A stretch of 15,570 nt of DNA from NCBI GenBank assembly GCA_043767805.1, contig JAYUGC010000050.1:1-15570 (forward strand). Reading direction: 5' to 3'. Positions 1-15,570 of this stretch are shown here, piece after piece (position 1 is the stretch's first letter; each line of letters opens with the position of its first letter). Under the pieces are notes generated by a model. The model saw nothing but the letters and a program-made list of their open reading frames with translations, was not told the DNA's origin and did not search any database. Both the position numbers and the translations under genes were made by a program. The stretch comes from Pseudomonadota bacterium (GTDB lineage Bacteria; Bdellovibrionota; FAC87; UBA2466).

Positions 1-925
1 CAATCAAGGAAGACAGCGGGAACTGGAGCAGCAGGCCCACGCCGCCAATGAGAAAGAGCAGGACCACCGAGAAATTGACGGCGATTTTGCGCACGGGCGC
101 CATGGCGACGCTTTTTAACGTCTCGACGAACATGACTACGTTCGTGTTGGGAACCTCGTAGAAGAACCCGTAAGCGGGTCCCTGATCGGCTTCGAACTCG
201 AGCTGACCCTGATTCAAGGGAGCGGCGATGAACTGCTGGATGAGCTTTCTCGTGATGTAGTTGTTCTGGGTGATTTCCTGATCGTTTGAGAAAACGAGGC
301 GGCCTTCCTTGGTCAGCAGATAAAGCGTGTTCTTGTCGGGGCTCTTCACCGTTTCGCCGAGCCATTTACTCAGGTCGATTTTCCACATGGCGAAATAGGC
401 GCCGGAGGGCGTATTAGCCCCGAGCCAGCGCTGAAGGCTTCCGCCTCCGGAGGCTATGGTGAGAAAATGCTCGCCCGCGAATTGAAGGATCGTCCATTTG
501 GCGCCGAGCTTCGCGGTGGCCAGGTGAAGATCGTTGGGGCTCAAGGATTCCGGAAAATCGCCCCGGATTTTCATGAGCGTGCCGGACTCGGAGACTTTCA
601 AAATGACGTCGGGAGGCAAGTCCTCGCCGCCCGGGCGCCCTCGGAACTGCTCGAAAGTGTGAATGAGGTGGTTGCCTTGGCTTTCCAGCTCCAAAAAGAG
701 AATCGCCCAAGTGTCGGTTAGCTTATTCTTATAGACGACGCTCAAGGCGTAGATACCCGCCATGCCGCCCGCGAGAAAGATCGCGGCGAGAACCGTACTG
801 AGCAGAAGGCCCGCGATGGTCAGCCGAGGCTTGCGCAGCCGCTTGACCTTGGCTTTTCCGTCGGCCGCCGCCGTTTCGGCGACTTTGAGCTTTGGCGGCT
901 TCGCTTTTTTTGGCTTAGTGGCCAT
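1..925 (-). CDS. Membrane-bound sensor protein (TM1 - periplasmic Cache-like domain - TM2); 3' end and output domain lie outside the window
   Basis: Manual translation from ATG at 925 is open to position 1 (308 codons): MATKPKKAKPPKLK...LTIAGLLLSTVLAAIFLAGGMAGIYALSVVY (TM1)...TLYLLTKEGRLVFSND...AYGFFYEVPNTNVVMFVE (Cache/PAS-like strands)...IAVNFSVVLLFLIGGVGLLLQFPLSSLI (TM2). The start overlaps the last 11 nt of motB. Not in the ORF track because it has no stop in the window. Confidence 0.8.
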   Translation of the reverse strand, partial: MATKPKKAKPPKLKVAETAAADGKAKVKRLRKPRLTIAGLLLSTVLAAIFLAGGMAGIYALSVVYKNKLTDTWAILFLELESQGNHLIHTFEQFRGRPGGEDLPPDVILKVSESGTLMKIRGDFPESLSPNDLHLATAKLGAKWTILQFAGEHFLTIASGGGSLQRWLGANTPSGAYFAMWKIDLSKWLGETVKSPDKNTLYLLTKEGRLVFSNDQEITQNNYITRKLIQQFIAAPLNQGQLEFEADQGPAYGFFYEVPNTNVVMFVETLKSVAMAPVRKIAVNFSVVLLFLIGGVGLLLQFPLSSLI

Positions 926-1748
926 TCTTTTCCTTCTTTACGACGATGTGCACGCGCCGGTTCCGCTCCATGTTCTCGGCAATCCAGGATCCGTTCGCCC
1001 GGCGTTCGGGGAAGAGAGGCTCGATGGAGGCCATGGCACGGGTCAAAATCATTTTTTGAGGGACGCCCTGGTTGATGAGCTCTTCCGCGACCGCGCCTGC
1101 GCGCGCAGCCGAAAGCGACCAGTTGTTCGGATACAAAGATTTTTTCGAAGGCAGGGCGGAGTCGGTGTGGCCGACGATTTCGATGGCAAGCAGCCCTTTG
1201 ATGCGGCTCAAGTAGCGGGCGATGCGCCGGATGCCGATTTTCGCGTCGTTGGTAAGCTCCGCCGTGCCGCCCATAAAAAGCATGCCGCCGGGAAGGGCGA
1301 GCTCCACGCGGTCTTCCTTGTCCATCATCTGGGCTTTGAGCTTGGAGAGTACGTTGTCTTCTTTCGTCTCCATGCCTTCCATGAGCGCCTCTCGCGCCAT
1401 GGCGAGATTCTGCGTCTCGGCCACTTGCTTTTCGATTTTATCAACGGCCGCTTCCACGTTCTCACCGAGGTTCAGCATGGCGACGAGAAGCTGAAGCGCG
1501 CGGATTTGGCGCGCTTGCATCATCATGCCCACTTCGGTCTTGGTCTGAGCGGCTTTGACGTCGCCCTTGAAAGCTTCGGCGAGCTGCTTGCTCACGGAGT
1601 TGAACTTCTGATCGTCGACAGTAGAAAAGCTATACAAGATGACGAAGAAGCCGAAGAGAAGCGTCATCATGTCCGCGTAGGACACGATCCATAGCTCTCC
1701 TTCCTCTCCCCCACCTCGATGTGGCTTTTTTATGTCTCTGCCTAACAA
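915..1748 (-). CDS. motB: MotB-family stator protein (N-terminal TM with ion-binding Asp, C-terminal OmpA-like peptidoglycan-binding domain)
   Basis: WIVSYADMMTLLFGFFVILY matches the MotB TM motif; GHTDS...NNWSLSAARA...NRRVHIVV are OmpA_C motifs; TTG start with AAAGGA upstream; directly downstream of motA. Confidence 0.95.
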   Translation of the reverse strand: MLGRDIKKPHRGGGEEGELWIVSYADMMTLLFGFFVILYSFSTVDDQKFNSVSKQLAEAFKGDVKAAQTKTEVGMMMQARQIRALQLLVAMLNLGENVEAAVDKIEKQVAETQNLAMAREALMEGMETKEDNVLSKLKAQMMDKEDRVELALPGGMLFMGGTAELTNDAKIGIRRIARYLSRIKGLLAIEIVGHTDSALPSKKSLYPNNWSLSAARAGAVAEELINQGVPQKMILTRAMASIEPLFPERRANGSWIAENMERNRRVHIVVKKEKNGH

Positions 1749-1766
1749 AAACTATCCTTTCAAACT

Positions 1767-2588
1767 CTAGGCCGCCTGCTTGGGCGCCGCCGTCGGACGT
1801 GAAGGCTTGGTCTGTCTGCCGCGCTCGCTCGGGAGGAGGAAGGATTTCACCTTTTCTTCGACGAACTGAGTCGGCTTGTCGGCCGCAATCAACATGATCC
1901 CTTCCACCACCATGCGGCGGGAGATGAGGTCTTCCTTGCTCTGTTGCATGAGCTGCTCGGCGATCGGAATGAAAACGAAGTTCGAGAGCACGATTCCGTA
2001 AAGCGTCGCGACGAGAGCGATGGACATGGAGGGCCCGATGGCGTTCTTGCTGCCTTCCGAGCCTAAAGACTGGAGCAGCGCGATCATGCCGAGAGTCGTA
2101 CCGAGAAGACCGAAGGCGGGCGGAAAGCGCGACATCACGCGAAAGATTTCCGACTCGCCCAAATAGCGCTCGTAATGCGTTTCAGCGCGGGTCTCCAGCA
2201 GTTCGCGCAGGTCTTCGTGGGAGACTTCGGCGTCGAGCCAAAAGAGCACGTTGCCGGCGTCTTTCAGAAAGAGGTCGTCGACCTTGTTGACCGCCTGCTC
2301 GAAAGCCTGGCGGCCGCGGCGCGAGGCCTGCGAGAGGCCGATGATTTCCTGGATGAGGCCCGGGTAGTTGCGCTTGCTCTTGCCGATGACGCGGCGGAAG
2401 AACACTTTAAAGAGGCTGAAGATCTTGGGAAGCGAGAAGCAGACGCAGCTCGCGGCGACCGTGCCGCCGATTACGATTAGAATCGCGTGCTCGTCTAGAA
2501 AGACGTGGTAGTCCTTCGCCGAGCGGGCGACAGCCACCACAAATACGGTAATCGATAGTAGGAACCCGACCATCGAGGATAAATTCAT
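1767..2588 (-). CDS. motA: MotA/PomA-family stator protein
   Basis: AILIVIGGTVAA (TM2), PPAFGLLGTTLGMI (TM3), IGPSMSIALVATLYG...FIPIA (TM4); cytoplasmic SRRGRQAFE retains Arg and Glu at the torque-generating positions; AGGAG RBS at 2594-2598. Confidence 0.95.
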   Translation of the reverse strand: MNLSSMVGFLLSITVFVVAVARSAKDYHVFLDEHAILIVIGGTVAASCVCFSLPKIFSLFKVFFRRVIGKSKRNYPGLIQEIIGLSQASRRGRQAFEQAVNKVDDLFLKDAGNVLFWLDAEVSHEDLRELLETRAETHYERYLGESEIFRVMSRFPPAFGLLGTTLGMIALLQSLGSEGSKNAIGPSMSIALVATLYGIVLSNFVFIPIAEQLMQQSKEDLISRRMVVEGIMLIAADKPTQFVEEKVKSFLLPSERGRQTKPSRPTAAPKQAA

Positions 2589-2615
2589 GACTTCTCCTAA
2601 GCAGCACTAAAATCG

Positions 2616-4874
2616 TTATCCGGTTTTCTTCACCGGAGGCTTGGGCGGCGGCGAGGCCTGAGGCGTCACCGTTTTTTGCCCAATCGGCGTGGGCGTTGTT
2701 TTCTGGCCCATATTCGTGTTTTCCGTCGTTAAAGGTTTGAGGCCCGGGGAGGCCTTCGTGGCGCTGGCGGCGGCTCCCGCGCGAGCGATGCCGGTGTTGG
2801 TTCCGGTACTCGCGGGCTCTTTGCCCTTGCCGAAGGATCCTCCTCCGCCGCCCGCCGCCGCGGCCTTGGCCGTTTTGTCGCCGTCCCGGCGGATGACGCT
2901 GGTGAGCATGCCTTGCTCTTTCATGTCGGCGAGCTTCTTGACGATGACGTCCCGGACTCGTTTGAAAGCATATTGGGCTTGTCGGCCTCCGCGGCTCGAC
3001 AAGCTTTCGAACTCTTCCGCGATCATGCCCTTACGGCGGGCGGGCAGGCCCTGCATGATGACCTTGCGCTCGTCGTCCCGCACACCCAAGGCGAGGGCGG
3101 CGACGTCTTTATTGGAGAGCCCTTCGATGATTTCCGTGCGCGCTTCCTCGGTGAGCTTAAAGAGCGTGCGGATGGTGATGACGTTCTCACGGAAATAGAG
3201 ATCGAGGCGGGGATCCGAGGAAAGCTCGCGGACGATTTCTTCCGAGAGATCATCTTCGGCCGCTTCGATGATCTCTTTATAGACTTTGAGGAACGGACGC
3301 TGGGCATCGGACTTGGTGCGGTTCAAGATGGCTTCGATGCCGCGCATGAGGTCCGCGTCCTGATTGTTCGATTTCTCCGCTTCCGGCATTTTCGAAAGCA
3401 GGCCCAGGACCTTCGAGTAATTCTTGTTCGATGAGCCCTTCAAGCCGGCGAGCAGCATCGCGATCTTCGTGGCGTCGAGATAGAGGAAGAGGCGCGGCAT
3501 GAGCTCGGGCGCGAGCTCGATGGCTACGTTGGCCAAATCTTCGTCGGTGAGCTGGAGGACTTTTTCCGCGACCTTGTCGCTGGGGCGTCCGCGAGCCATG
3601 TCGAGAGAGTCGACGAGAAGTCTCGTTTTCAGCTCTTCGCCGGCCTCTAACATCATTTCCACTTTGGTGCTCTCGTAAGCGCCTTCCCGCATGAACTTTA
3701 AAATCGCTTCTTGAGAGTTGAGGCCGAGGCGCTTGAACATCTCGGTCGCCATTTCCCGGCCCAAGAGCTCGAGGGTGACCACCGCGCGGCCCACCGTCGC
3801 GGGGTTCGCGAGGAGCTGGGTGAGCTGACGGAGAATGACGGCTTCCGTGTTCTCGTTGGCGCTTTCCAAAATCTCGACCCGCAATTTCCCGAAATGCGTT
3901 TGCAGGGATTCCATCGGCAATGACGCGAGCCCGTGGCTCTTGTGCCCGCCTTCGCTGATGAACTTGCCTTCCATCACTTTCGGATCGGAGGAGCTGGGCG
4001 CGGCGACTCCCGTCGCGACGCCAATATTTGAGCCGACGCTCTCAACGGCCGCCGCCATGGTGGTGAAGGCATTGGTCAGGTTCTTGCCGGCCCCGCTGAT
4101 GCTTCTGCCCGCGAACCAAAGGCCCAAGAGGATGCAACCGAAGACGGCGACGATGACACCGAGGATGGCCCAGAGGGTCCATTTACCGAGGAAACCTTCT
4201 TGCTGATTCGCGCGCGCCAGATCGCGGCCGAGGCGATCGTTCTCGGCCTTCATGCGATCCAGGTTGTTTTTCAGCTCGCTCTTTTCCTGGCGCCAGGCAT
4301 CGGTATCGATCTCGATGCCGAGGTCGCCGAAGCGCACGCGGTCGCCGCGTTTTTGACTGAGCTCAAGCTCTTTGAAAAGGAGCTGCTGCAACCGGTTCTT
4401 GGTGCTGGCCAGACGGGCGGTGAGCAGAACTTCCAGCTCCACTTTCTGCACGTACGTTCCCAGCTCTTCGGTGGAGCGAGATAGAATGAGGCCCGACGGA
4501 TCGTAGGGCGTGAGCGGCAAAGCCTTCTTGGTCGGAGTCACGTTGACTGACACTTGGAACTCTCTCGCCGGGATGTAGCGCTCGAGCAGCTCGCGCGCTC
4601 TTTGCTCGAAGGCTTCCGTCAGAACGGCTTTCGTGTCGACGGTCTGGATCTTGCGGTTCTCGACGTCGGCCCCGATCGGCGGTCTCGCGGTCCCTCTGGC
4701 TTTTGCCGCGTCGCCGGTTTCCGGCGTGCTGCCGGGTCTTGCGCCTTTCGCGGGTTGGGCCCTTTCGCCAAAAGCGGACGACGCACCGGTGCCAGCGAGC
4801 AAAAAGCAAACGACGAAGGTCCACAACTGGAGCCGTTGTCGTCGATATTTAGGTTTTGCTTTTCTTACACTCAT
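2616..4874 (-). CDS. FliF(RBM3)-TM-FliG fusion protein; putative single-chain rotor
   Basis: N-terminal signal peptide (...FVVCFLLAGTGASSAFG). EQRARELLERYIP..FQVSVNV / VQKVELEVLL / LSQKRGDRVRF resembles FliF RBM3 (~4320-4622). TM at ~4107-4181. RAVVTLELLGREMATEMFKRLG resembles FliG_N. ENVITIRTLFKL...DVAALALGV...GLPARRKGMIAEEFE...IVKKLADMKEQG resembles FliG_C (~2904-3188). Low-complexity C-terminal tail. Confidence 0.8.
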   Translation of the reverse strand: MSVRKAKPKYRRQRLQLWTFVVCFLLAGTGASSAFGERAQPAKGARPGSTPETGDAAKARGTARPPIGADVENRKIQTVDTKAVLTEAFEQRARELLERYIPAREFQVSVNVTPTKKALPLTPYDPSGLILSRSTEELGTYVQKVELEVLLTARLASTKNRLQQLLFKELELSQKRGDRVRFGDLGIEIDTDAWRQEKSELKNNLDRMKAENDRLGRDLARANQQEGFLGKWTLWAILGVIVAVFGCILLGLWFAGRSISGAGKNLTNAFTTMAAAVESVGSNIGVATGVAAPSSSDPKVMEGKFISEGGHKSHGLASLPMESLQTHFGKLRVEILESANENTEAVILRQLTQLLANPATVGRAVVTLELLGREMATEMFKRLGLNSQEAILKFMREGAYESTKVEMMLEAGEELKTRLLVDSLDMARGRPSDKVAEKVLQLTDEDLANVAIELAPELMPRLFLYLDATKIAMLLAGLKGSSNKNYSKVLGLLSKMPEAEKSNNQDADLMRGIEAILNRTKSDAQRPFLKVYKEIIEAAEDDLSEEIVRELSSDPRLDLYFRENVITIRTLFKLTEEARTEIIEGLSNKDVAALALGVRDDERKVIMQGLPARRKGMIAEEFESLSSRGGRQAQYAFKRVRDVIVKKLADMKEQGMLTSVIRRDGDKTAKAAAAGGGGGSFGKGKEPASTGTNTGIARAGAAASATKASPGLKPLTTENTNMGQKTTPTPIGQKTVTPQASPPPKPPVKKTG

Positions 4875-4888
4875 CCAGACCTAAAAGT

Positions 4889-4918
4889 TCCTCCGCGAAG
4901 TAGAAAGCTACGCGGGGA
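4889..4918 (-). promoter_or_regulatory. Stem-loop in the 5' leader of the FliF-FliG gene that includes a GGAGGA Shine-Dalgarno-like sequence
   Basis: Minus strand reads TCC-CCGCG-TAG-CTTT-CTA-CTT-CGCGG-A-GGA (imperfect inverted repeat); GGAGGA lies in the 3' arm, 14 nt before the ATG. Confidence 0.35.
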
Positions 4919-4932
4919 TGTCCTCGAGTGAC

Positions 4933-4959
4933 TTTTCGGGTTAAAATCTAAATAGCTTA
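4933..4959 (-). promoter_or_regulatory. Putative sigma28 (FliA)-type promoter for the fliFG-motA-motB-sensor operon
   Basis: Minus strand TAAG-N15-CCCGAAAA versus consensus TAAA-N15-GCCGATAA, in an AT-rich divergent intergenic region about 60 nt upstream of the ATG. Confidence 0.45.
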
Positions 4960-4986
4960 AGTGGGCCAAACTTCATTGATTTCGAA

Positions 4987-5553
4987 ATGCCTACCCCCTC
5001 AAAAATTGCGCTTGTTTTAGCGATGGTTAGTTTGCTCGGCGCTTGCGCAGGGCGTCGGACCGTGACCTTCATTTCTCAGGAGCCCGGAGCCCAGCTGGCG
5101 CTCGTTCCCATGGAGTCTCCGGAAAGCGAAGGTACGAAGCTCAGGAACCCCGCCGCGGTCGACCTCGCCCAAATGAAGAATAAGGCGGTGCGTATATCCG
5201 CCACGGGCAAGGCGTCTCAGTACTGGTTCTCTTCCTTGGCCCAAGCGCCGCGAGTTCAGGTGAAGATCAAGCGCCTTGGCTCGTGCGAAGGGCAGGAGGG
5301 TAACCGCAACCGGCCGACGCGCTTACTCCTCAAGGCGTATCAGGCGCTCTACTCGAAGGACTTTTCGCTCGCGCGCGACTTGGCCTCGCGCGCGTCGCTC
5401 ATCGACACGACCCTCGCGGCCCCTCATATCATCACGGGTCTAGCCTTTCTGAAGGAAGGCGACAGGCCCAAGGCCCTCGCTTCGTTTAACCAGGCCCAGG
5501 CCTTGGATCCTGAAGATAGTGAGATCGGCTCTCTCATCAGGACGGCTCAGTGA
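4987..5553 (+). CDS. Lipoprotein with N-terminal beta-rich (PEGA-like) domain and C-terminal TPR repeats
   Basis: Lipobox LGA-C after a hydrophobic stretch; VTFISQEPGAQL is a PEGA-like start; LLKAYQALYSKDFSLARDLA..., APHIITGLAFLKEGDRPKALASFNQAQALDPED is a canonical TPR pattern. Confidence 0.8.
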   Translation: MPTPSKIALVLAMVSLLGACAGRRTVTFISQEPGAQLALVPMESPESEGTKLRNPAAVDLAQMKNKAVRISATGKASQYWFSSLAQAPRVQVKIKRLGSCEGQEGNRNRPTRLLLKAYQALYSKDFSLARDLASRASLIDTTLAAPHIITGLAFLKEGDRPKALASFNQAQALDPEDSEIGSLIRTAQ

Positions 5554-6185
5554 TACGGCGGTGGACGGCTTTGGCTGTCGGGCTTTGGGCCGTGGGCGCG
5601 CAAGCCATCGACACCACCGAAAATAGGAAGTTCGATCTCATTCTTCGCTCGGCCGTCGTGGCGGGGACCGTTACCCAAGACGGCCCGGATCCGGACCGTC
5701 CCACTCTCACGATCGGCACTCCGATTAAATACGGGGGAATGCTCATCGGTTTTGGCGTGAACTACGATCTCATGCGCTGGTTCAGCCTAGGGTTAGGGGC
5801 CCATTTCATCTTGGATTTGGCTCAGGGTTCCATCACCCGAAAGGGGCTCGAGATCACCGCGGGCTTTCATCTTTTGGGTGGGGCGCGCCGGATCATGACG
5901 GAAACGGATGACATGTCCTTGATGGAAAGAGACCCCTACGCGCTGACCTTTTTAGTGCGGCCCGGGTTTCAGAGCTATACCCCCGCGAGCGCCGCCACCG
6001 CGGCGGTCCAGGTCGACGCTTCTCTCATCGCCATGGATATGGGCCTGGAGTATCGGATAGACGCAGGCGAGGGATCGTCTATATCTTTGGCATTTTTGTA
6101 TAGTCTCATTTCACTTCCAGCCTCGGTTCCGAAGGCTAAATCCGCCCTGATGACCATCGAAGCCTCCTGGCACATCTTTCTCTAG
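5550..6185 (+). CDS. Putative small outer-membrane beta-barrel protein
   Basis: GTG start overlaps the upstream stop (GTGA); signal peptide ending AQA; alternating amphipathic strands (IGFGVNYDL, FSLGLGAHF, LEITAGFHL, MDMGLEYRI, ISLAFLY); C-terminal strand IEASWHIFL. Confidence 0.7.
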   Translation: MIRRWTALAVGLWAVGAQAIDTTENRKFDLILRSAVVAGTVTQDGPDPDRPTLTIGTPIKYGGMLIGFGVNYDLMRWFSLGLGAHFILDLAQGSITRKGLEITAGFHLLGGARRIMTETDDMSLMERDPYALTFLVRPGFQSYTPASAATAAVQVDASLIAMDMGLEYRIDAGEGSSISLAFLYSLISLPASVPKAKSALMTIEASWHIFL

Positions 6186-6226
6186 ATCCCAAGCCTAGTT
6201 AGCCTCAAGCCTTTGCCTCTACGCGT

Positions 6227-6261
6227 CATACCGGCTATACTCAAACCATAGCGGTATGTTT
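6227..6261 (+). terminator. Stem-loop downstream of the beta-barrel gene, possible intrinsic terminator
   Basis: CATACC-G-GCTAT / 9-nt loop / ATAGC-GGTATG (11 bp with one bulge), followed by only TTT, so the U-tract is weak. Confidence 0.35.
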
Positions 6262-6351
6262 GCGACGTGGTACGTAGCTTTAGTTTCGTCTCCTTTCCTC
6301 GCTCCTCTTTCCTAGCTGAACCGCTAAAAAACTCCCTTTTATCGCAACGCA

Positions 6352-6379
6352 TAAAGTTTTCGGTTCGTTCTGCCGATCT
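6352..6379 (+). promoter_or_regulatory. Sigma28 (FliA/SigD)-type promoter
   Basis: TAAAGTTT-N12-GCCGATCT, close to the extended consensus TAAAGTTT-N11-GCCGATAA, ending 25 nt before ATG 6405. Confidence 0.7.
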
Positions 6380-6404
6380 AAACGCTGAGCCCCCTGAAGT
6401 ACGT

Positions 6405-9400
6405 ATGAAGACATTTATTAGATTCCAATTAGCGGTGTTCATCGGCCTACTGCTTTTACTGGGCGGTTGCCTGGGTTACGAAACCCCGGTCCAAACTCCC
6501 AACAGTAAAATGGTTTTCGGCTGTTTAAGCGATCCGGACGGCGCGGGCCCGGACGGCGATGTCGTCTATAACAAGGCGACGTCCACCGTTTCCATGAACT
6601 GGGGTTTCCCCAAGAAGGCTCAAGGCCAAGTTACGTACAAGATTTACGACGCCGACACCGGCGACGTGCTTCAAACGACGGGTAGCAACGAGTGGTCCTT
6701 CGCCGTCTCTCGCGATACCATCCGCGTTTACAATATATACGTCGAAGCGAGCGATGACACGGGTGAGACCGATTGTTACCTGCGCGATAAGGTCGTGCAG
6801 GTCGCCATCAATCCAGGCTCCGCGCCCGTCATGGGCCGCAGCTGGGCTTATCCCGTTTCCCACGACCGGATCCTGATCGTCTGGGAAAAATCCGTTTCCG
6901 AGCAGACGGCTCGCTACGATGTCTTCACGCGGGAAAGCGTGTTCACCGGTAACGGTTTCTTGATCGAAAACCCGGTCGCCATCGGCAATACGGTCAAGAC
7001 GTACTTTTTCGTGGATAAATTGGACCCGAGCTCCGAGTACAGCTTCATCGTGGAAGCGGTGAATACGGACGGCGTTCGTTCCTCGCGCCGCCAGGCCGTC
7101 ACCGCCACGACTCTCAGTACCGACCGGCCCGCGTTCAACGGAATTTTCCAAGTGAGCCGCCTCGGCGGCACTGCGGGCTTGAGCGGTCTCGAGATTAAGT
7201 TCAGTCCGAGTACCGATGCGTCGGTCACCGGCTATCGCCTCTTCATGTACCAGGGCGTTCTCGATTACGATATGCCGTTTGGTCTCTACGTTCCGCAAGT
7301 GCCCGTGCAGGCCGTCTCCATCGGGGGTTCGGCGGCGGGCTATCACGTGCCCCGGCTCGGGCCTGGATCCATTCCTTATGAGAGCATGACCATCAAGAAT
7401 CTTTCCGCTGATACCAATTATTGTTTCGTGCTGCGCGCGTTCCGGGGCGGTATCGTCGGGCCGGTGGTGCAGGAAGAGAACAACCTCCGGGTTTGTAATA
7501 AGACCAACTCCGTCAAAGCGCCAACCTTCATGGGCGTGAACACGGTCAACGCCGCGGACGGCGCGACGGGCTTTACCACTCTGAACGTGAACTTTCCGCA
7601 TCCGAACGCGGATGGCGTCTGGAATAAATTCCGGTTCCAGTACAAAGAGTTTGCGACGAATCCCGGTCCTAATTGCGCCGGTAAAGATCTCACCACCGGT
7701 TTGATGGAGTTTTACACGGCCGATGATACGGATGGTCTGACGACCTTCCCCGTGTCGGCGAGCATCAACGCGAACATGTACTACTGTTTCAAGGTAAACG
7801 CCGTGTATCAGTCCGGCTTAATCACTTTGGTCTCGGATACGAATACGAAATGGGCCTCCGGCCGAGCGCGTCCGCTGCCGCCGGTTTTCACGGGTCTCGT
7901 CTCCGTGATTCGCACGCCGAGCGAAGAGGGCGAGCTCTTTGACTCGTTCGACCTCATTTACCAACCGGCCTCAGGCAGTTTTACGGAGTACCTATACGAA
8001 GTGTCCACGAGCCCGACCTTCACCGCCATCGTGAAGTCTCAAACGCTCGCCGACAGCCCGAATACGACCCGTATTACTTTGTCGGGCTTGCCGAAGGCCA
8101 CCCAATTGTACGCGCGGGTTAGCGCCGTCTTCCGCGTGGGCACGGGCGTCGGTGCCTTCGAGCTGAAAGATACGGACGACACCATTCCGGCGCGCGCGCC
8201 CCGCTATCTCTCCCTCAATACCACGCCCACCGCCGCGGATAAGGAAGGTATTCTTTCCGTGACGCCCGTCACTCCCAAGTCGATTCGCATTACGGCTACT
8301 TTACCTGTGAACGCGGGCGCGACGTGGAATCAGAACGTGTTTTGGCTCGTCAGCGACTACTACGCGGGTTGCACCAGCACGCCCATTTACTGTCAGCTTG
8401 GAAAGACAGCGGCGCAGCTCATTGCGGACTACAAGACCAATCCGACCTGGATCGTCGGGACCGTGGGTCGCTTGGTCGATAACATTCAAGTGAACTCCCT
8501 CAAGGCGGACGTGCAGTATTGCGCCCAGTTCCGTTCGCGGTATCGCTCGGTAACCGACTCCTTGGACTCGGCCAGCAATACGAACGATCTTCAAAAAATG
8601 TGCGCGACCCCACGCTTGTTAGCGGCTCCGTTCGCGGGTGTGGCGAAATTGTATAACCGCAACGATGCGGGGGGCTTCACCCAGCTTTGGGCCAAATTCC
8701 CCATGCTGCCCAATGGCGACTCTTTTACTCGCTACAGAATTGGCTGGAGCTCGGGAACTGGCGCGGGACCCAATACGGTTACCTTTGCGGCCCCGCAAAC
8801 CCGCGAGATCACCACTCCTAATGCCGCCGGCGAAAACTGCATCATCAAAGGCACGGATTTACATTGTCCTATCGAGCTGAGTAACAACTTGGCCCCGAAC
8901 ACCAGGTTCTACGTCAAAGTTCGAACCGAGTTCGATTTCGAAGGGGAAAGCGCTGCGCCCACGGGAACGGCGTTCTCCGCGACCGCCGTAACGACCCCGG
9001 CGAGTCCTTCGCTCCCCACGGCGGTGGCCGCAGCTCCTTACGGATCTACCTCGGTGAAGGTGGACTTCAAGGCGGCTAAGAATCCGACGACGGTCGATAC
9101 GGCCGATGCGGATCGGCTCTCGGGACTTTGGAACAACGTTTTCATCTATGTGGCCAAGAGCGATCCCGCGGTCGATTCGATTGTGGCCAATAAGGGCGTC
9201 CTCAACTCCGCGGGACTTCGCGTGCCCATGGATTCCGACATTGCCGCGGTCGCTAACTCTCAAGGCGAGTTCATCCTGGGCGCGGTGGATCTCGACGCCG
9301 GTATCATTTTGCGGGCTAACCGCAGCATTCTAGCCGACAACGCGATGAACTCTCTCATCATCAAGAACCTAAGCCCGTTGGGAATGGGCATGCAGTATAA

Positions 9401-12400
9401 AATCAGAGTCGCGAACGTTTATTGGGACGGCACCGCGAATAATTACGTGACCAGCCAAACGGTCTCCGCGGCGGCGGCTCCCGAGGCTAAGGCGCCGACC
9501 TTCGCCGGCTGGAAAGATTTTTCGAAGTACCATGACGAGCGCGATTTCACGGAATTACGAGTTATCGTCGATCCTCCCGTGGGCGAGTGCACTTCCATGG
9601 AAGCGCTCGTTTTTGAAAAGTCGTATATCTACAGCGTCTCGGATTGGACCGCGAGTAGCGGCGCCAAAGTGGAAAAAGAGCTTCCCTGCAGCGCGAGCGA
9701 GCTCGTATTCAATCGCGCCTTGGCCGGCACCGCCGGAGCCTTGCTGCCTGGAAAAGAGTATCACGTCCGCGTGCGTGCGGTGAACGTGGTGGGCACCGAG
9801 ATTTATACGACGGGCGAAAGCAAACAATCCACCGAAGCGAACCTCATGCAGCCGGTGCGTCCGTCGAGCGCCGACTTGGACACGACTCCCCTCGTTTTGA
9901 CGAGCCTTGCGAACTCTCCGGATAAGATTCGGGTCAATTTCAAGACGCCGACGCTCGGAGACTTCAACAAGGTGATGGTGTTCTATACGAGCCAGCTCAT
10001 TTCGGCGGGAAATTCCACGCTTCAGAAAAACTCGTTGATGGAACAGATGAAGACTCAGATCGTCACGGGACCTCCGAAACTCAGAGGCCCGGAAGCTTTG
10101 GTAGCGGGGGGAACGGCTCCTTTGGCGGGTACGACGGTCTTCACTCAACCCGTGCCGACCACCTCGGCGGCTCAGTCGATAAACTGGGAGCTTACCAGTG
10201 CGGTGGTAGGCAACCGATATTGCTTCGGCGTGCTGGCCATGTATGCGGTGACGGATGATTTTAGTGACGATCGGTACTTGCCCAGTCTTCCGGACGGCGA
10301 GCTTCCCGCGGACACTCAAGTCCAGTGCATCGATCTTCCGTTTACCCCCTCGGGCCTTACGAACGTGGCTCTTTCCAGCGCGGTCATGGACTCGGCTACG
10401 TGCCCGGACAACTCGAGTCAGCACTACATTCGCTTGACCTTCGCGAACCCGGCGGCGAGCGCGGCGACCATCGAGAGGTGGAAAATATTCATCGCGAACG
10501 GCGTGGATACCCTCAACTTCGGCGATACGAATGGCGACTCCTGGCAAGAAATTGCGAAAGGCGATTCCGTCCGCGACAAGAGCTCGGCCGGTTACCTTCT
10601 CGTCGGTTGCGAGGGCAAGGTTCCGGGAGGAAAGACTCACTTCCTCGTGAAGTGGGAATTTGGCGGCAGCGCCATCAACGACGTCTTCTCCAATCGCTAC
10701 AACACCACCCCGCTTAACATCAGTGCGGCGGAGTCCAACTTTGTCTGGGTACCCAAGAAGATTTCGGGTCTTTCGTATCCGTACCTCATGAACACCTTCG
10801 AGGCGTCTCGCGATGGCGTAACGGGGTCGTTCGGAACGGAAGCGGTCGCCGCGGAAAGCGCGCTGGATGATTGCAATGCGGCTTACCACTCGAACGGATC
10901 GCTGTCCCTTTGCGGTACTTCTTCCACCGGCAAGGTGCGCTCCATCAAGGGGGCGGTGCCGATGTCGGCCAACTGGAAGACTGCGTGGTGGGCCTGCCGT
11001 CAGAGCTCTCCCGTGAAAGGAATGCTCTGGCGTCTGCCCACTCAACAGGAATGGGTGCGAGCCTCCAAGTGGCCTTCGGCGGAGTACACGGTTGCCGCGG
11101 CGGACATCAACTCCCAGGCTTTGACCAATTGTAACGTGCTGCCGGTGAACCATTCTATCGGCGTGACGGGCGATAGGCCTAGCTGCGTATCGACCGTCGG
11201 CGCGGTCGACATGGTTGGCCGTTCGCGGGAATGGGTGGATGCCCGGCTCCAACGTTTCGATGAGACGAACGCTCGTCTCGGCTGGAGCCCGATTTTGGGC
11301 CGCATGATCGATAACGGTATCGATCGCCTGACCTACCGCTTACACGAGATCGTCCCCCCGGCCAATGGCTTGGGACTCTTGATGGGTAGCGATTTCGGAA
11401 ATACGGCGACTTATCAGCTCGCAGTCGACGCCGAGACTCAGCTTTGGAAAGACATCACCTATTCCAACGCGGCGGAAAGCGCGCCGGTGACTGGTTTCCG
11501 TTGCATGGGCTTGGTGAAAGCGCTGATGCCGACGGTCGATCAGCTGGCTCTCCCGCAAGAGCCGGTATATACGGCGGCGGAAGTGCCGGCAGGTGCCCCC
11601 GCTAGCTGGAAAATTCCGGAAGGCCGGTTCATCAAGGATACGCGCCCCGAGTCCGTACGCATCGTCGTCACTGACGATACGACGCCGAAAGGGAAAGTCC
11701 AGATATTCTGGCCGTCCTGGACGAAGGCTTGCTCAGGCACTTGCACGATGTCCTATGACATCTACCGCGCGGTCGAGCCGAACCACATCGATTCCCGGTT
11801 CACCACGTCTTGGGCGCTTCCGGGAGATGCCACCAATCCGAGCCCGTACAACAGCGCGCTGCCTCTCGATCCCTTGGCGACCGATGCCTCGGGTAACCAG
11901 GTTTGGACGCCGGTGGGCGCAAACCTCCCCGAAACGTACAACGTTTGTACTTCGACCACGGCCCCGAAGCTCCCGCCCGTCGCGGGAACGCTCGCGGCTC
12001 CTACGGGTAACTGCTATGAGTTCGACTACACGTCGGGCTCCGCGGTCGCCGCGGGCGAGAACAAGCGCATGTATCTTTACATGGTAGTCGCGAAGGACAG
12101 CCAAGGTAACCGGATGCCGCCTATGGTCCAGCGGTTCCGTACGCCGTATCTCTCGGGCGATTTCAGTCAGGGCGCGAAGGCTTCCTTCCGTCAGGAAATG
12201 CGCTGGCGGCGAGCTTCCGTCGGAGCGGTCGCCGAGACGTTCCAGTCTAGTAAGACGATTGCTCAGGTCTTGGTGCACGTGCCGATGGATATATCGGGAC
12301 ATGACCACGATTATTACATTCAGAAATATGAAAGTTTCCTCTACGACGGCACGGTGAACGACAACGGTGCCTCTGCCGCCAACCCCATTTCAGATGTGGC

Positions 12401-13379
12401 CGGTGTCTGGAGCCCGAATCTGGCGACTTGCACGGAATCCACCGAGCGAGACAGCTCGGTCTTCCCCTCCGAGTGCGGAACTTTGGGCACGTCGGCGAGA
12501 TTTGGCTCTAAACAAGGCACGACTCCCCTCGGCAATACCGTGTCCACCTCGGTGAGCTACGCTTCGCTCTGGAGAGGTTGCCGCAACAGCTCTTCCGACA
12601 TCACGGAAGGCACGGCGACCTATCGGTACAATCTGCACTCGCCCTCGGGCGCGGAGTACACGAAAGCTTCCGACTGGGGGGACGTGAATTTCGACAATTC
12701 CGTGGATCAGAATCCGTGGCTTGCCAACGGAACCAATGTCCGAAACGTCGAGTTTTCCAACGACGGAGCTCCGGTGGGACCGAGTCTAACGAGCTGCTTT
12801 ACGGAAGCTTGGGACGGCGTCACCTCTCCGGCGCCTGGCGCGAATCCTCCGATTACGGCCACGACTCCGGCCCTCACGGGTAGCCGTGCGAACTGCATCA
12901 GCCGTTACGGCGCGGTGGACCTCGTGGGTAACGCGTGGGAAATCAATGCCGAGCGTATTTACTGGCCGAGCCATTCCCCGACCGACCTCGGTATGATCCA
13001 AGACAACGGGCTCGATGGGCTGTGGCTTGGTCTTCAGGAAGAGCGCTTCGACTTAACCCTGAACTCCCTTCGCGTGAACCTCATCCGCGGTATCCCTTAC
13101 TTGTTCCACGGCAACCTTACCGCGGCGGACGGTATTACTCCGGCGCCGAGCACTCCGATCCTGTGGTTGCCGGGCTGGGAATTCGGTACTTACGCGACGG
13201 TAGCCATGGGCGGCGGATTCATGGAACGTTGGGCTTCGGGTAATAACAGTCAAAAGGGCACGACCATGAGCATGGGTCGGTTCGGCCGCGGCGCTGATAT
13301 CGCGAGCGGTAACAACCATGCGTCCGACATGAAAGCCACCGCCGGTCTCATTCGCCATGGCGGCCGCTGCGCCCGGTAA
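6405..13379 (+). CDS. Giant (~2324 aa) lipoprotein with ~11 fibronectin type III-like domains and two FGE-sulfatase (SUMF1)/C-type-lectin-fold domains; putative adhesin
   Basis: Start reassigned to ATG 6405 because MKTFIRFQLAVFIGLLLLLGG-C is a lipoprotein signal. Fn3 signatures LDPSSEYSFIVEAVN, LSADTNYCFVLRA, LAPNTRFYVKVR, LLPGKEYHVRVRAVN and others. FGE-like motifs WRLPTQQEW...GAVDMVGRSREWV...GFRC (~10734-11510) and SPSGAEY...YGAVDLVGNAWE...GGRCAR* (~12264-13379). Confidence 0.85.
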   Translation: MKTFIRFQLAVFIGLLLLLGGCLGYETPVQTPNSKMVFGCLSDPDGAGPDGDVVYNKATSTVSMNWGFPKKAQGQVTYKIYDADTGDVLQTTGSNEWSFAVSRDTIRVYNIYVEASDDTGETDCYLRDKVVQVAINPGSAPVMGRSWAYPVSHDRILIVWEKSVSEQTARYDVFTRESVFTGNGFLIENPVAIGNTVKTYFFVDKLDPSSEYSFIVEAVNTDGVRSSRRQAVTATTLSTDRPAFNGIFQVSRLGGTAGLSGLEIKFSPSTDASVTGYRLFMYQGVLDYDMPFGLYVPQVPVQAVSIGGSAAGYHVPRLGPGSIPYESMTIKNLSADTNYCFVLRAFRGGIVGPVVQEENNLRVCNKTNSVKAPTFMGVNTVNAADGATGFTTLNVNFPHPNADGVWNKFRFQYKEFATNPGPNCAGKDLTTGLMEFYTADDTDGLTTFPVSASINANMYYCFKVNAVYQSGLITLVSDTNTKWASGRARPLPPVFTGLVSVIRTPSEEGELFDSFDLIYQPASGSFTEYLYEVSTSPTFTAIVKSQTLADSPNTTRITLSGLPKATQLYARVSAVFRVGTGVGAFELKDTDDTIPARAPRYLSLNTTPTAADKEGILSVTPVTPKSIRITATLPVNAGATWNQNVFWLVSDYYAGCTSTPIYCQLGKTAAQLIADYKTNPTWIVGTVGRLVDNIQVNSLKADVQYCAQFRSRYRSVTDSLDSASNTNDLQKMCATPRLLAAPFAGVAKLYNRNDAGGFTQLWAKFPMLPNGDSFTRYRIGWSSGTGAGPNTVTFAAPQTREITTPNAAGENCIIKGTDLHCPIELSNNLAPNTRFYVKVRTEFDFEGESAAPTGTAFSATAVTTPASPSLPTAVAAAPYGSTSVKVDFKAAKNPTTVDTADADRLSGLWNNVFIYVAKSDPAVDSIVANKGVLNSAGLRVPMDSDIAAVANSQGEFILGAVDLDAGIILRANRSILADNAMNSLIIKNLSPLGMGMQYKIRVANVYWDGTANNYVTSQTVSAAAAPEAKAPTFAGWKDFSKYHDERDFTELRVIVDPPVGECTSMEALVFEKSYIYSVSDWTASSGAKVEKELPCSASELVFNRALAGTAGALLPGKEYHVRVRAVNVVGTEIYTTGESKQSTEANLMQPVRPSSADLDTTPLVLTSLANSPDKIRVNFKTPTLGDFNKVMVFYTSQLISAGNSTLQKNSLMEQMKTQIVTGPPKLRGPEALVAGGTAPLAGTTVFTQPVPTTSAAQSINWELTSAVVGNRYCFGVLAMYAVTDDFSDDRYLPSLPDGELPADTQVQCIDLPFTPSGLTNVALSSAVMDSATCPDNSSQHYIRLTFANPAASAATIERWKIFIANGVDTLNFGDTNGDSWQEIAKGDSVRDKSSAGYLLVGCEGKVPGGKTHFLVKWEFGGSAINDVFSNRYNTTPLNISAAESNFVWVPKKISGLSYPYLMNTFEASRDGVTGSFGTEAVAAESALDDCNAAYHSNGSLSLCGTSSTGKVRSIKGAVPMSANWKTAWWACRQSSPVKGMLWRLPTQQEWVRASKWPSAEYTVAAADINSQALTNCNVLPVNHSIGVTGDRPSCVSTVGAVDMVGRSREWVDARLQRFDETNARLGWSPILGRMIDNGIDRLTYRLHEIVPPANGLGLLMGSDFGNTATYQLAVDAETQLWKDITYSNAAESAPVTGFRCMGLVKALMPTVDQLALPQEPVYTAAEVPAGAPASWKIPEGRFIKDTRPESVRIVVTDDTTPKGKVQIFWPSWTKACSGTCTMSYDIYRAVEPNHIDSRFTTSWALPGDATNPSPYNSALPLDPLATDASGNQVWTPVGANLPETYNVCTSTTAPKLPPVAGTLAAPTGNCYEFDYTSGSAVAAGENKRMYLYMVVAKDSQGNRMPPMVQRFRTPYLSGDFSQGAKASFRQEMRWRRASVGAVAETFQSSKTIAQVLVHVPMDISGHDHDYYIQKYESFLYDGTVNDNGASAANPISDVAGVWSPNLATCTESTERDSSVFPSECGTLGTSARFGSKQGTTPLGNTVSTSVSYASLWRGCRNSSSDITEGTATYRYNLHSPSGAEYTKASDWGDVNFDNSVDQNPWLANGTNVRNVEFSNDGAPVGPSLTSCFTEAWDGVTSPAPGANPPITATTPALTGSRANCISRYGAVDLVGNAWEINAERIYWPSHSPTDLGMIQDNGLDGLWLGLQEERFDLTLNSLRVNLIRGIPYLFHGNLTAADGITPAPSTPILWLPGWEFGTYATVAMGGGFMERWASGNNSQKGTTMSMGRFGRGADIASGNNHASDMKATAGLIRHGGRCAR

Positions 13380-13467: not shown

Positions 13468-14112
13468 ATGGAAGCTATCCGGAGCCTCGTCGACTTGTTC
13501 TTGCATCTAGATCACCACTTGGCCGCGGTCATCGCGGACTATGGTCCCATGACATACGTAATCTTGTTCCTGGTGATTTTTTGCGAGACGGGCCTCATCG
13601 TCCTGCCCATTCTCCCTGGCGACTCACTGCTCTTCGCGGCCGGGGCGCTCGCGGTCACTACCGATCTCAAGGTGGAAATTCTGATTCCACTTCTGTTAGT
13701 GGCCGCTATCCTAGGGGATGCGGTCAACTACGCTGTCGGCCATTACCTGGGGCCGAAAGTGCTCACCGAGAATCATCGCTTTCTGAAGCGAGCGTATTTG
13801 GAAAAAACCCATCATTTTTACGAGAAGTACGGCGGCAAGACCATCCTCTTTGCCCGCTTCGTTCCCATCGTGCGCACCTTCGCTCCTTTTCTCGCGGGCG
13901 TCGGCGGAATGACGTATAGCCGGTTCTTTGCGTACAACGTTTCGGGAGCCGTGCTCTGGATTTTTCTCTTCGTCCTCGCGGGCTATAACTTCGGCAACAT
14001 TCCCGTGGTGAAACAGAACTTCACCCTGGTCATTTTAGGCATCATTGTCGTTTCCGTGTTACCGGCCGTGGTCGAATTTCTGAAGTCCCGGCAGAAACCC
14101 GAGTTGAGGTAG
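13468..14112 (+). CDS. dedA: DedA family membrane protein
   Basis: FCETGLIVLPILPGDSLLFAAG, LGDAVNYAVG and YGGKTILFARFVPIVRTFAPFLAG are DedA hallmarks. Confidence 0.95.
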   Translation: MEAIRSLVDLFLHLDHHLAAVIADYGPMTYVILFLVIFCETGLIVLPILPGDSLLFAAGALAVTTDLKVEILIPLLLVAAILGDAVNYAVGHYLGPKVLTENHRFLKRAYLEKTHHFYEKYGGKTILFARFVPIVRTFAPFLAGVGGMTYSRFFAYNVSGAVLWIFLFVLAGYNFGNIPVVKQNFTLVILGIIVVSVLPAVVEFLKSRQKPELR

Positions 14113-14118
14113 TAGTCC

Positions 14119-15570
14119 ATGGCTCGAGACACGCTTTATCTAATCGACGGCAGCTCCTATATTTTCCGCGCTTACTTCGCGATTCAGCGGCTTTCCACTT
14201 CCAAAGGTTTTCCGACGAACGCCATCTACGGCTTCGTGAACATGCTGATGAAAGTCTTGGAGGAGAAGAAGCCTAAGCTTTTAACGATCGCGTTCGATAC
14301 GCCGAAGCCGAGCTTCCGTAAGGAAATGTTCCCCGAGTACAAGGCGAACCGCGAGCGCCCGCCCGAAGATCTCATTCCTCAATTCGCCCCTATTCAGCGG
14401 TCGGTGGAGGCCTTCGGGGTCATGCCTTTGCGCATCGAAGGCTGGGAAGCGGACGACATCATTGGTACGCTTGCTCGCCGGGCGGAGCGGGAGGGGTACG
14501 CGGTCGAGATCATCAGCGGTGACAAGGACCTCATGCAGCTCGTGACCGATCACGTGCGGCTCTACGAGCCGATGTCGGACCGTCAGTACGATGCCACCGC
14601 GGTCTTCGAGAAGTTTCAGGTGCGGCCCGACCAAATCGTCGATTACCTCGCGCTCATGGGAGATAGCTCCGATAACATTCCGGGCGTCGCGGGCATCGGC
14701 AAGAAGACGGCGGCCGAGCTGCTCACCCAGTTCGGATCTCTCGATGGCATTTACGAGAACCTCGAGTCCATTAAAAGCGAGAAGCGGCGGGAAACTTTGA
14801 AGCAGGAAAAAGACATCGCTTACCTGAGTAAGCGGCTCACTCAGCTCGATTGCGACATGAAGCTCCCCGTGACCTGGGACGAGCTACATTATAAGGGGCC
14901 GGATTTGCCGAAGCTTCAGGCCTTCCTCACCGAGTTCGAGTTCACGGGACTGATGAAGCGCTTCGACATGAAGGTCGAGACGCCCACCATGGATCGCGGT
15001 AAGGTCGTCATCCTGCGCACGGAGAAAGAGCTCGATGAGGCGTTGACCGTACTCAGCCAAGCGGCTCGGGTTGCGGTGGACACCGAGACGACGTCCCTGC
15101 AGCCGCACGATGCGGACCTCGTGGGGGTCTCTCTCTGCGGCGGGATGGATGAGTCCTACTATCTTCCGCTCGGCCACTATATTTCGGACGGCGAGAAACG
15201 CGAGTTGGCCCAAGGTCAGATGGACGCCTCCGCGGCCAAGGCGCTGCTCAAGCCCTTTCTCGAGAACGCGGCCATTCGCAAGACCGGCCAGAACATCAAG
15301 TACGACACGCAAGTGTTGCGGCGCTGGGGCGTTGAGATGGCGGGAGTCGTTTCCGATACGATGATCGCAAGCTATCTCATCGAGCCCGACGAGCCGCATA
15401 ACATGGATAGCTTGGCGTCCAAGTATCTCGGCCATCAGACCATCAAGTACGAAGACGTCACGGGAAAAGGGAAATCCCAAGTCTCCTTCGCTGAAGTGGA
15501 GATTAGTAAGGCCGCGGACTATTCGGCCGAAGACGCCGAAGTGACGCTAAAGCTCGAGAAGACGCTCGTG
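14119..15570 (+). CDS. polA: DNA polymerase I (5'-3' exonuclease and 3'-5' exonuclease domains; truncated at the window end)
   Basis: Manual translation from ATG 14119, open to the end (484 codons): LYLIDGSSYIFRAYFA, PTNAIYGF, YKANR, EADDIIG, SGDKDLMQL, LMGDSSDNIPGVAGIGKKTA, then AVDTETTSL, GQNIKYD, DTMIASYL, YSAEDA. GAGG RBS upstream. Confidence 0.97.
   Translation, partial: MARDTLYLIDGSSYIFRAYFAIQRLSTSKGFPTNAIYGFVNMLMKVLEEKKPKLLTIAFDTPKPSFRKEMFPEYKANRERPPEDLIPQFAPIQRSVEAFGVMPLRIEGWEADDIIGTLARRAEREGYAVEIISGDKDLMQLVTDHVRLYEPMSDRQYDATAVFEKFQVRPDQIVDYLALMGDSSDNIPGVAGIGKKTAAELLTQFGSLDGIYENLESIKSEKRRETLKQEKDIAYLSKRLTQLDCDMKLPVTWDELHYKGPDLPKLQAFLTEFEFTGLMKRFDMKVETPTMDRGKVVILRTEKELDEALTVLSQAARVAVDTETTSLQPHDADLVGVSLCGGMDESYYLPLGHYISDGEKRELAQGQMDASAAKALLKPFLENAAIRKTGQNIKYDTQVLRRWGVEMAGVVSDTMIASYLIEPDEPHNMDSLASKYLGHQTIKYEDVTGKGKSQVSFAEVEISKAADYSAEDAEVTLKLEKTLV

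Follow-up and report, generated by a model that had tools for sequence, protein, structure and literature searches.

We analysed a 15,570-base stretch of DNA (hereafter the window), which is the entire contig JAYUGC010000050.1 (C50) of a 4.5-Mb Bdellovibrionota genome. It carries a gene for a 752-amino-acid (aa) protein, predicted to unite the ring-forming part of FliF with the rotor protein FliG, together with genes for a MotA/MotB stator, a lipoprotein and a small beta-barrel. We conclude, with a probability of about 0.68, that this locus encodes a self-contained machine that is derived from the flagellar motor and reaches across the cell envelope, and that it is not part of a flagellum. Because the parts that would make and receive torque are conserved, and because the most constant partners are predicted outer-membrane proteins, a trans-envelope machine is the best reading of the locus. 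This reading and the alternatives weighed below are all based on sequence and predicted structure.

A natural fusion of FliF and FliG

An AlphaFold (AF2) model of the 752-aa rotor protein was built on 83 relatives and reached a predicted local distance difference test score (pLDDT) of 80.1. It comprises a transmembrane or signal segment (residues ~15-36), a periplasmic ring-building domain with an alpha-beta-beta-alpha-beta fold (81-184), a long helix (192-223), a second transmembrane segment (~231-257) and a linker, followed by all-helical domains resembling the N, M and C domains of FliG (~321-675) and a disordered tail. The ring-building domain resembles RBM3 of FliF and sits between model helices 8-32 and 234-287. 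In a Foldseek search the top match of the model was full-length FliG (3hjl, E 2e-5), and chains of the FliF MS-ring (RBM3) came next (E ~1e-2, probability 1.00). Superposition of parts of the model on solved structures by VIA-align gave the following matches (Z score; root-mean-square deviation; aligned residues):

Model 565-657 on Thermotoga maritima FliG_C (1qc7_B): Z 12.0; 1.8 A; 89/89
Model 567-658 on FliG_C solved bound to MotAB (8ucs_H): Z 11.8; 2.2 A; 88/88
Model 358-661 on Salmonella FliG 4-323: Z 11.8; 8.7 A; 284
Model 74-188 on Vibrio FliF RBM3 (8z5v_A, 255-452): Z 10.8; 2.2 A; 94
Model 76-188 on Salmonella FliF RBM3 (231-438): Z 10.1; 2.2 A; 92

The identity of the rotor rests on these folds as well as on sequence, because its profile alignment (hhalign) with the genome's own FliG has a probability of only 49.6%. 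In that alignment, R613 and E620/E621 of the rotor fall on the R and E/D residues of the FliG torque helix. A basic residue at 613/614 is present in 27 of the 29 rotors from the loci compared below and in 78/82 representatives of the family, and an acidic residue at 620 in all 29 locus rotors and 77/82 representatives. The torque-helix residues of FliG that face MotA are R281, D288 and D289 in Escherichia coli numbering, according to the portions of PMC12505986 consulted. Pfam matches to the rotor included FliG_C in a six-frame search of the genome (28.3 bits, above the cut-off) and MgtE_N (26.1 bits against a cut-off of 25.9). There was no Pfam match to YscJ_FliF, which covers RBM1 and RBM2, in the rotor protein; the only such match in the genome is on contig C38. 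The EHPQR motif of FliG_M is the binding site for FliM. This motif is not kept in the rotor: in the same single profile alignment, at 49.6% probability, the canonical 'vdehpqt' lies opposite 'LYLDATK', and the consensus of the rotor family at this position is LYLePxK. As modelled, the RBM3 of FliF, two membrane segments and an entire FliG, its torque helix intact, are united in one polypeptide. An earlier note on this DNA, made from the sequence alone, had called the protein a FliF-FliG fusion, and the fold matches to RBM3 and to all three FliG domains support that call.

A dedicated stator of the flagellar type

The products of the two genes behind the rotor gene matched MotA_ExbB (74 bits) and, for the second, MotB_plug (70.4 bits) and OmpA (58.6 bits), bearing out their assignment as motA and motB. 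The nearest solved relatives of the module MotA are flagellar MotA (6ysf/8ucs, E 5e-31) and PomA (E 3e-29), and its 'SRRGR..FEQ' stretch aligns onto the 'ARKGG..LALEE' stretch of PomA (R..E motif). The functional residues are invariant among relatives: D26 of MotB in 16/16 module MotBs, and P156, P157 and P208 of MotA in 19/19 module MotAs. Module MotA is only 27.8% identical to the canonical MotA encoded on C38, compared with 60-86% to its module orthologues, and it is 60% identical to an orthologue from a second phylum. Module MotB and the canonical MotB on C38 share 25% identity. Judged from sequence, the rotor is predicted to be co-transcribed with its own flagellar-type MotA and MotB, which keep the channel aspartate, the prolines and the peptidoglycan-binding domain.

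Organization of the locus

The features of the window that belong to the module are as follows:

2-925, minus: sensor, N-terminal 308 aa, cut by the contig start; transmembrane segment, periplasmic domain of ~220 aa, transmembrane segment
915-1748, minus: motB; transmembrane helix with channel Asp D26, plug, OmpA-like peptidoglycan-binding domain
1767-2588, minus: motA; stator subunit of the flagellar (MotA/PomA) kind
2616-4874, minus: 752-aa rotor protein, predicted natural FliF(RBM3)-FliG fusion by AF2 fold matches
4875-4986: divergent intergenic region of 112 nucleotides (nt), between the rotor operon and the opposite arm
4987-5553, plus: TPR lipoprotein, 188 aa; lipobox, beta-rich N-terminal part, TPR-like C-terminal part
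5550-6185, plus: small outer-membrane beta-barrel, 211 aa; signal peptide, predicted (AF2) barrel fold
6405-13379, plus: giant Fn3-rich lipoprotein, 2324 aa; the open reading frame opens with GTG at 6267, and the likely start is ATG at 6405

On the minus strand the order of transcription is rotor, motA, motB and the truncated sensor gene, with 27 nt between rotor and motA, 18 nt between motA and motB, and an 11-nt overlap of motB and the sensor gene. The divergent plus-strand arm runs from the TPR lipoprotein through the barrel to the giant protein, and the lipoprotein and barrel genes are translationally coupled by a 4-nt overlap. Recomputed coordinates of the open reading frames reproduced the gene order, strands and spacing reported earlier. 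The 112-nt divergent spacer probably holds both promoters. A promoter scan found no sigma-70-like site within the spacer, and the single sigma-70-like site that it returned lies at 6213-6241, ahead of the giant gene. A search with Rfam gave no match at E<=1 anywhere in the window. The sequencing runs listed for the locus are four of DNA, all of a single sediment study, and none of RNA.

Downstream of the giant gene lie a gene for a VTT/DedA membrane protein and polA (13468-15570), which are unrelated to the module. They occur in the same order in a relative of the same genus (locus L007), and the point of insertion of the module is therefore stable within the genus.

Conservation of the module in two phyla

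We searched exhaustively for the rotor family with profiles, where a word-based search had given 8 relatives. At E<=1e-3 the family comprises 252 representative clusters, of which 114 reach E<=1e-30, and most members are 600-750 aa long. In a sample of Bdellovibrionota, 6/401 genomes (including that of the window) carry the rotor family, and all six belong to one family-level group, in which 5/33 other genomes are positive. In a second phylum, reached through locus L009, 38/131 genomes match at E<=1e-10, with 25 places at E<=1e-49; FlhA is present in 113 of these 131 genomes.

For the comparison of neighbourhoods we used 29 non-duplicate loci: the window, five genomes of the same group, 21 of the 25 strong places in the second phylum and two metagenome contigs. 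The four remaining strong places (G437:C923, G432:C588, G471:C292 and G463:C1) lie outside the comparison. Pattern scans turned up 4 loci in genome contigs and 2 in metagenome contigs; the majority came from profile searches of genomes. Two genomes contribute two loci each, and related loci are not independent. The neighbours were counted by means of profiles that drew on the first six or seven loci, as follows:

TPR lipoprotein: 25 of 29 loci
motA: 21
Barrel: 20
motB: 18
PP2C-type sensor: 18
Secreted protein: 16
Homologue of the window's giant: 7

The TPR lipoprotein is the most constant companion of the rotor. Three of the four loci that miss it have less than 200 bases of flank before a contig end, and L061 is the only locus without it where at least 1 kb of flank is present. 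The order of the genes varies: the set is co-directional in L066 and L074, and motAB lie on the lipoprotein side in L059, L067, L076 and L077. As the lipoprotein and barrel genes stay with the rotor through these rearrangements and in two phyla, the two divergent arms are linked, and the co-occurrence on which their proposed connection depended is present. The rotor is inherited together with the TPR lipoprotein and the barrel, and in most loci the neighbourhood includes a HAMP-PP2C sensor and a secreted protein of ~400 aa.

None of the 63 scanned neighbour proteins outside the rotor family belongs to a flagellar family other than MotA/MotB, and across the 29 loci the homologues do not sit inside flagellar clusters. 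In a 15.6-kb contig, the absence of further flagellar genes is weak evidence by itself; it is confirmed by these orthologous loci, which include as much as 10 kb of flanking sequence.

In L061 (6738-9326) the rotor-family member has 862 aa and a C-terminal MshEN domain (60 bits), which we take to be of the type that binds cyclic di-GMP. It has a DUF4388 neighbour, and no TPR lipoprotein, barrel or motAB gene nearby.

Predicted outer-membrane partners

The lipobox cysteine of the TPR lipoprotein (Cys20) is invariant in 26/26 relatives, and none of them has Asp at position +2. If the +2 rule of E. coli is assumed to hold here, this points to the outer membrane. The C-terminal TPR-like part is conserved, although its TPR_2 score (22.6 bits) is below the Pfam cut-off. 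Thus the lipoprotein half of the earlier assignment is strengthened by the invariant cysteine, and its TPR half stays below the Pfam threshold.

The AF2 model of the 211-aa protein (pLDDT 85.4) has about 10 strands, and Foldseek matched it to Ail (2n2l, E 4e-6), OmpA, NspA, OprF (4rlc, TMt 0.74) and OmpX, with E values of 4e-6 to 6e-4, and with a probability of 1.00 for the matches at 4e-6 to 6e-5. Pfam OMP_b-brl is found in only 1/21 barrel relatives. By its predicted structure this protein is a small outer-membrane barrel of the OmpA/Ail kind, and the suggestion that it was a barrel is confirmed by the model and by the fold matches to Ail, OmpA, NspA and OprF.

In one locus (L022, 8515-10376) an ExbB-ExbD-ExbD set adjoins the barrel gene of the module, at the place where other loci have the giant protein.

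The giant protein and other large neighbours

The giant protein has a lipobox and an fn3 match of 54 bits. Its match to FGE-sulfatase (16.8-19 bits) stays below the cut-off of 23.3, and two pieces of the protein gave no sequence match in the PDB. Aligned over 2255 columns, it shares 29.6% identity with a 2197-aa protein from another phylum (L067), in which the C-terminal FGE domain scores 48.4 bits. Large proteins related to one of three classes occur near the rotor in 16/29 loci: Fn3/FGE giants; Fn3/TIG/GLUG proteins of ~1900 aa followed by one of ~900 aa; and proteins of ~900 aa without Pfam hits. The giant is a variable, accessory neighbour of the module. Of the earlier description as a lectin-tipped Fn3/FGE lipoprotein, the lipobox and the Fn3 domains hold, the FGE domain is supported only through the L067 homologue, and a lectin tip did not emerge.

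The sensor phosphatase and the continuation of the operon

The full-length orthologue of the truncated sensor (L007:13912-15798) consists of a transmembrane segment, a periplasmic domain, a second transmembrane segment, HAMP (21.8 bits) and SpoIIE (119 bits). Residues 319-614 of the sensor were found by tblastn on another contig of the same genome (C58:72844-73731) at 88% identity, and this piece matches SpoIIE/PP2C at E 2.7e-33; the domain lies outside the window. The assembly is broken inside the sensor gene, with C50 beginning at about residue 315 of the orthologue and C58 ending with residues 319-614. As the two halves of the sensor lie at the start of C50 and the end of C58, the two contigs abut. 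The sensor is, by its domain matches, a membrane HAMP-PP2C phosphatase of the RsbU-like membrane-sensor type; that it was a membrane sensor had been recognized before, and its nature as a PP2C phosphatase had not been specified. The next gene of the operon, at the end of C58, encodes a 412-aa secreted protein, and unrelated lipid and sugar genes lie behind it. The secreted proteins of ~400 aa gave only weak Fn3-like signals, and profile searches of solved structures with the secreted-protein and barrel alignments returned nothing below E 0.09.

In L072 (747-7902) and L073 (11944-17967) a protein of ~1750 aa with protein kinase, AAA_16, GAF and SpoIIE domains replaces the HAMP-PP2C sensor. A lysine-methyltransferase-like gene lies between this protein and the rotor, and there is no motAB within 8 kb.

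The flagellum of the host and related gene sets

The same genome encodes a canonical flagellum: C38 carries fliF, fliG and motAB, C185 carries flhA and fliM, and flagellin is encoded by four genes. The 752-aa protein is thus not the only FliF or FliG of the genome, C38 providing the separate canonical set that the earlier note had named as a check on the proposed system. Among the hosts checked we found none that lacks a flagellum; three rotor-positive genomes without a match to FlhA have flagellins, and two of them have FliF.

Two further sets in this genome resemble the module. On C91 (L023, 7842-10915) three genes share one strand; their products are a TPR lipoprotein of 196 aa, a rotor-like protein of 617 aa (E 8e-133 to the rotor family profile) and a barrel-like protein of 207 aa. 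The 8.4 kb downstream contain no motAB; on the upstream side, 0.5 kb of contig precedes the lipoprotein gene. On C157 (L024, 6102-10831) the genes specify, in this order, a secreted protein of 323 aa, a TPR lipoprotein of 215 aa, a membrane protein of 563 aa, MotA and MotB. The 563-aa membrane protein matches FliG_M and FliG_C (63 bits), and its torque helix lacks paired acidic residues. It represents a sister family, which hhalign aligns to the rotor family with 94% probability over the FliG part only; the N-terminal halves of the two families gave no hhalign alignment. The sister family was found in 15/34 genomes of the group as well as in three other families, and in 11/12 loci its gene is followed by motA. 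With motB genes on C38, C50 and C157, the three MotB_plug genes of the genome are accounted for as one canonical gene and two that accompany FliG-like membrane proteins. C33 (L025, 8911-9411) encodes a stand-alone 166-aa protein with little beyond FliG_C (56 bits), away from motor genes.

The three motAB pairs of Bdellovibrio bacteriovorus are treated as powering one flagellum in reviews of 2024-2026 (PMC11323537 and PMC13689555, in the portions consulted). In the large Bdellovibrionota families f8 and f10, neither the rotor family nor the sister family had a full-length match, which suggests that the B. bacteriovorus lineage lacks both, as far as sequence searches can tell. We considered the extra motAB pairs of B. 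bacteriovorus as further modules of this kind, and for the same reason they are probably not.

A proposed trans-envelope machine and its rivals

In the arrangement that we propose, the fusion protein would assemble a FliF/FliG-like ring in the inner membrane, and MotA5B2 units anchored in the peptidoglycan would exert an ion-driven push on the FliG_C domains of that protein. The long helix would hold the RBM3 ring in the periplasm above the membrane, and from this ring motion or force would be transmitted to the outer-membrane lipoprotein and barrel; we infer a contact between the ring and the lipoprotein. More speculatively, the output may act on the large Fn3-type surface lipoproteins, moving, releasing or presenting them for attachment or gliding, and Ser/Thr phosphorylation controlled through the PP2C sensor may switch the machine. 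The recurrence of giant Fn3 proteins beside a phosphatase or kinase-phosphatase sensor suggests such regulated handling of surface adhesins, an idea that we regard as possible and rather less than an even bet. We are similarly tentative about the most far-reaching version, in which a free-standing rotary envelope motor has its own MotAB turn the FliF-FliG ring and, through lipoprotein and barrel, drive or position giant Fn3 lipoproteins under Ser/Thr regulation, as a new apparatus, derived from the flagellum, for surface movement or prey attachment in predatory Bdellovibrionota and the second phylum. The earlier note had proposed a trans-envelope rotary machine repurposed from flagellar parts. 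The flagellar origin fits the conserved torque-helix and stator residues; rotation, assembly into a single complex and handling of the giant are conjectural. The giant has a homologue in 7/29 loci and an FGE match below threshold.

Several observations weigh against an independent machine. Every host checked is flagellated, and a role at or with the flagellum is compatible with this distribution. In L061, L068, L071, L072 and L073 motAB are missing from the available flank, and in four of these five loci E621 is changed to Q or R613 is lost; some members of the rotor family may therefore function with no stator of their own. We saw no consistent co-variation between charge changes in MotA and those in the rotor: L076 and L077 have changes on both the torque-helix and the MotA side, L059 and L074 on one side only. 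The sequence scores of the rotor are also low, with a borderline FliG_C match by hmmscan (23.1 bits against a cut-off of 23.3) beside the 49.6% probability of the hhalign comparison with the genome's own FliG. A homologue of the giant, found in 7 of the 29 loci, is not a constant partner, and ring formation and rotation are predicted purely from homology.

That flagellar genes are found in all hosts examined is the main reason why an accessory of the true flagellum survives as an explanation. The module would then be an alternative stator with a scaffold that docks on the flagellar motor, or a second rotor ring. TPR and lipoprotein scaffolds of stators are known from complex motors (PflA/PflB, FlgP, MotX/MotY), and the module's stator, with its plug and OmpA domain, belongs to the MotA/PomA type. 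The portions of PMC11323537 and PMC13689555 already cited, in which several motAB pairs serve a single flagellum, also fit. However, the module brings its own FliG with a predicted intact torque helix, so that the stator has a partner of its own, and this rotor lacks both RBM1/2, which hold the export gate, and the EHPQ motif. Moreover, no flagellar family was found among the 63 scanned neighbours, the module is present in only 6/401 and 38/131 genomes although 113/131 have FlhA, and neither f8 nor f10 has a full-length match to the rotor or sister family. We therefore consider a flagellar accessory distinctly unlikely. The module could instead be a signalling device that moves nothing, in which MotAB, on engaging the FliG-like membrane protein, would report the load on the envelope, contact with a surface or the proton-motive force, and the HAMP-PP2C protein would relay the signal. 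The PP2C-type sensor in 18/29 loci, the kinase-AAA-GAF-PP2C protein (1740 aa) in L072 and L073, and the MshEN domain at the C-terminus of the L061 rotor all favour this. Yet a ring domain, three FliG domains and a stator channel are conserved in two phyla, which is beyond the needs of a sensor, and the lipoprotein (25 loci) and barrel (20) are more constant than the sensor (18); we think a pure signalling role unlikely. A decaying remnant of a second flagellar system, without present function, might explain a fusion protein that lacks parts of FliF and has weak Pfam scores. It is scarcely credible for genes whose frames are all open, whose rotor family has 114 clusters at E<=1e-30 and conserved functional residues, whose linkage is kept in two phyla, and whose MotA is 60-69% identical across distant hosts.

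If a self-contained trans-envelope machine is indeed encoded here, it would offer a minimal natural rotor, useful for studies of ring assembly and turning, and a candidate force generator for the surface behaviour of predatory bacteria, and it would bear on the origin or reuse of the flagellar motor.

Comparison with known systems

The literature searched contained no account of a FliF-FliG protein that comes with its own MotAB; the nearest is the FliF-FliG fusion of Chlamydia. With the core of the flagellar motor the module shares the RBM3 fold, two membrane segments, the N, M and C folds of FliG, the charges of the torque helix, and MotA/MotB. Unlike in that motor, FliF and FliG form one polypeptide here, YscJ_FliF (RBM1/2) gives no hit and the EHPQ motif is not kept. 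The module also stands without adjacent genes for FliM/N, the export apparatus, rod, hook or filament, and its partners are instead an outer-membrane lipoprotein, a small barrel, a PP2C sensor and Fn3 proteins.

The Chlamydiaceae fusion is likewise a natural, shortened FliF joined to a FliG-like cytoplasmic part in a non-flagellar context, as described in the portions of PMC4768692 consulted. There it is given as a protein of ~330 aa with RBM2 and an RBM-like domain and without a SpoIIIAG-like domain (Bergeron 2016, PMC4768692); its FliG part is confined to an FliG-M-like region, and MotA is nowhere mentioned in the paper. In contrast, the 752-aa protein is predicted to keep RBM3, three FliG domains and the torque helix, and it has its own MotAB. 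Engineered FliF-FliG fusions of Vibrio and Salmonella establish that a covalent fusion can assemble S-rings (for Vibrio, PMC11481574, in the portions consulted). As described there, these are laboratory constructs with full-length FliF inside the flagellar motor, whereas the 752-aa protein is natural, has one RBM and lacks flagellar partners.

A possible likeness in working exists to the GldLM motor of the type IX secretion system (T9SS) and gliding in Bacteroidota, with its SprB adhesin, in which an inner-membrane ion motor is combined with outer-membrane lipoproteins and giant repetitive surface proteins (PMC13104615, in the portions consulted). There is no homology of motor or rotor, GldLM not being MotAB/FliG. 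The gliding lipoproteins GldJ and GldK carry the FGE fold. They differ from the giant described here, in which the FGE-like domain is part of a large Fn3 protein and, in the window, scores below the cut-off.

The stator-like ion channels of ExbBD-TonB, TolQR-TolA, AglRQS-Glt and ZorAB also power envelope processes other than swimming. In the portions of PMC12505986 consulted, ExbBD, TolQR, AglRQS and ZorAB are classed as a non-flagellar 'GIT' group without a FliG-type rotor, and the main-text portions of this survey, which separates flagellar from generic stators, contain no module like the present one. Unlike the GIT motors, the module pairs its stator with a FliG, and the best solved relatives of that stator place it in the flagellar type. 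To our knowledge, the flagellum is the only setting in which FliG and MotAB are known to form a torque pair, and ExbBD, TolQR, GldLM, AglRQS and ZorAB act on other partners. Judged from the predicted structures, the torque-generating core of the module is the known flagellar one, and the machine that surrounds it is new.

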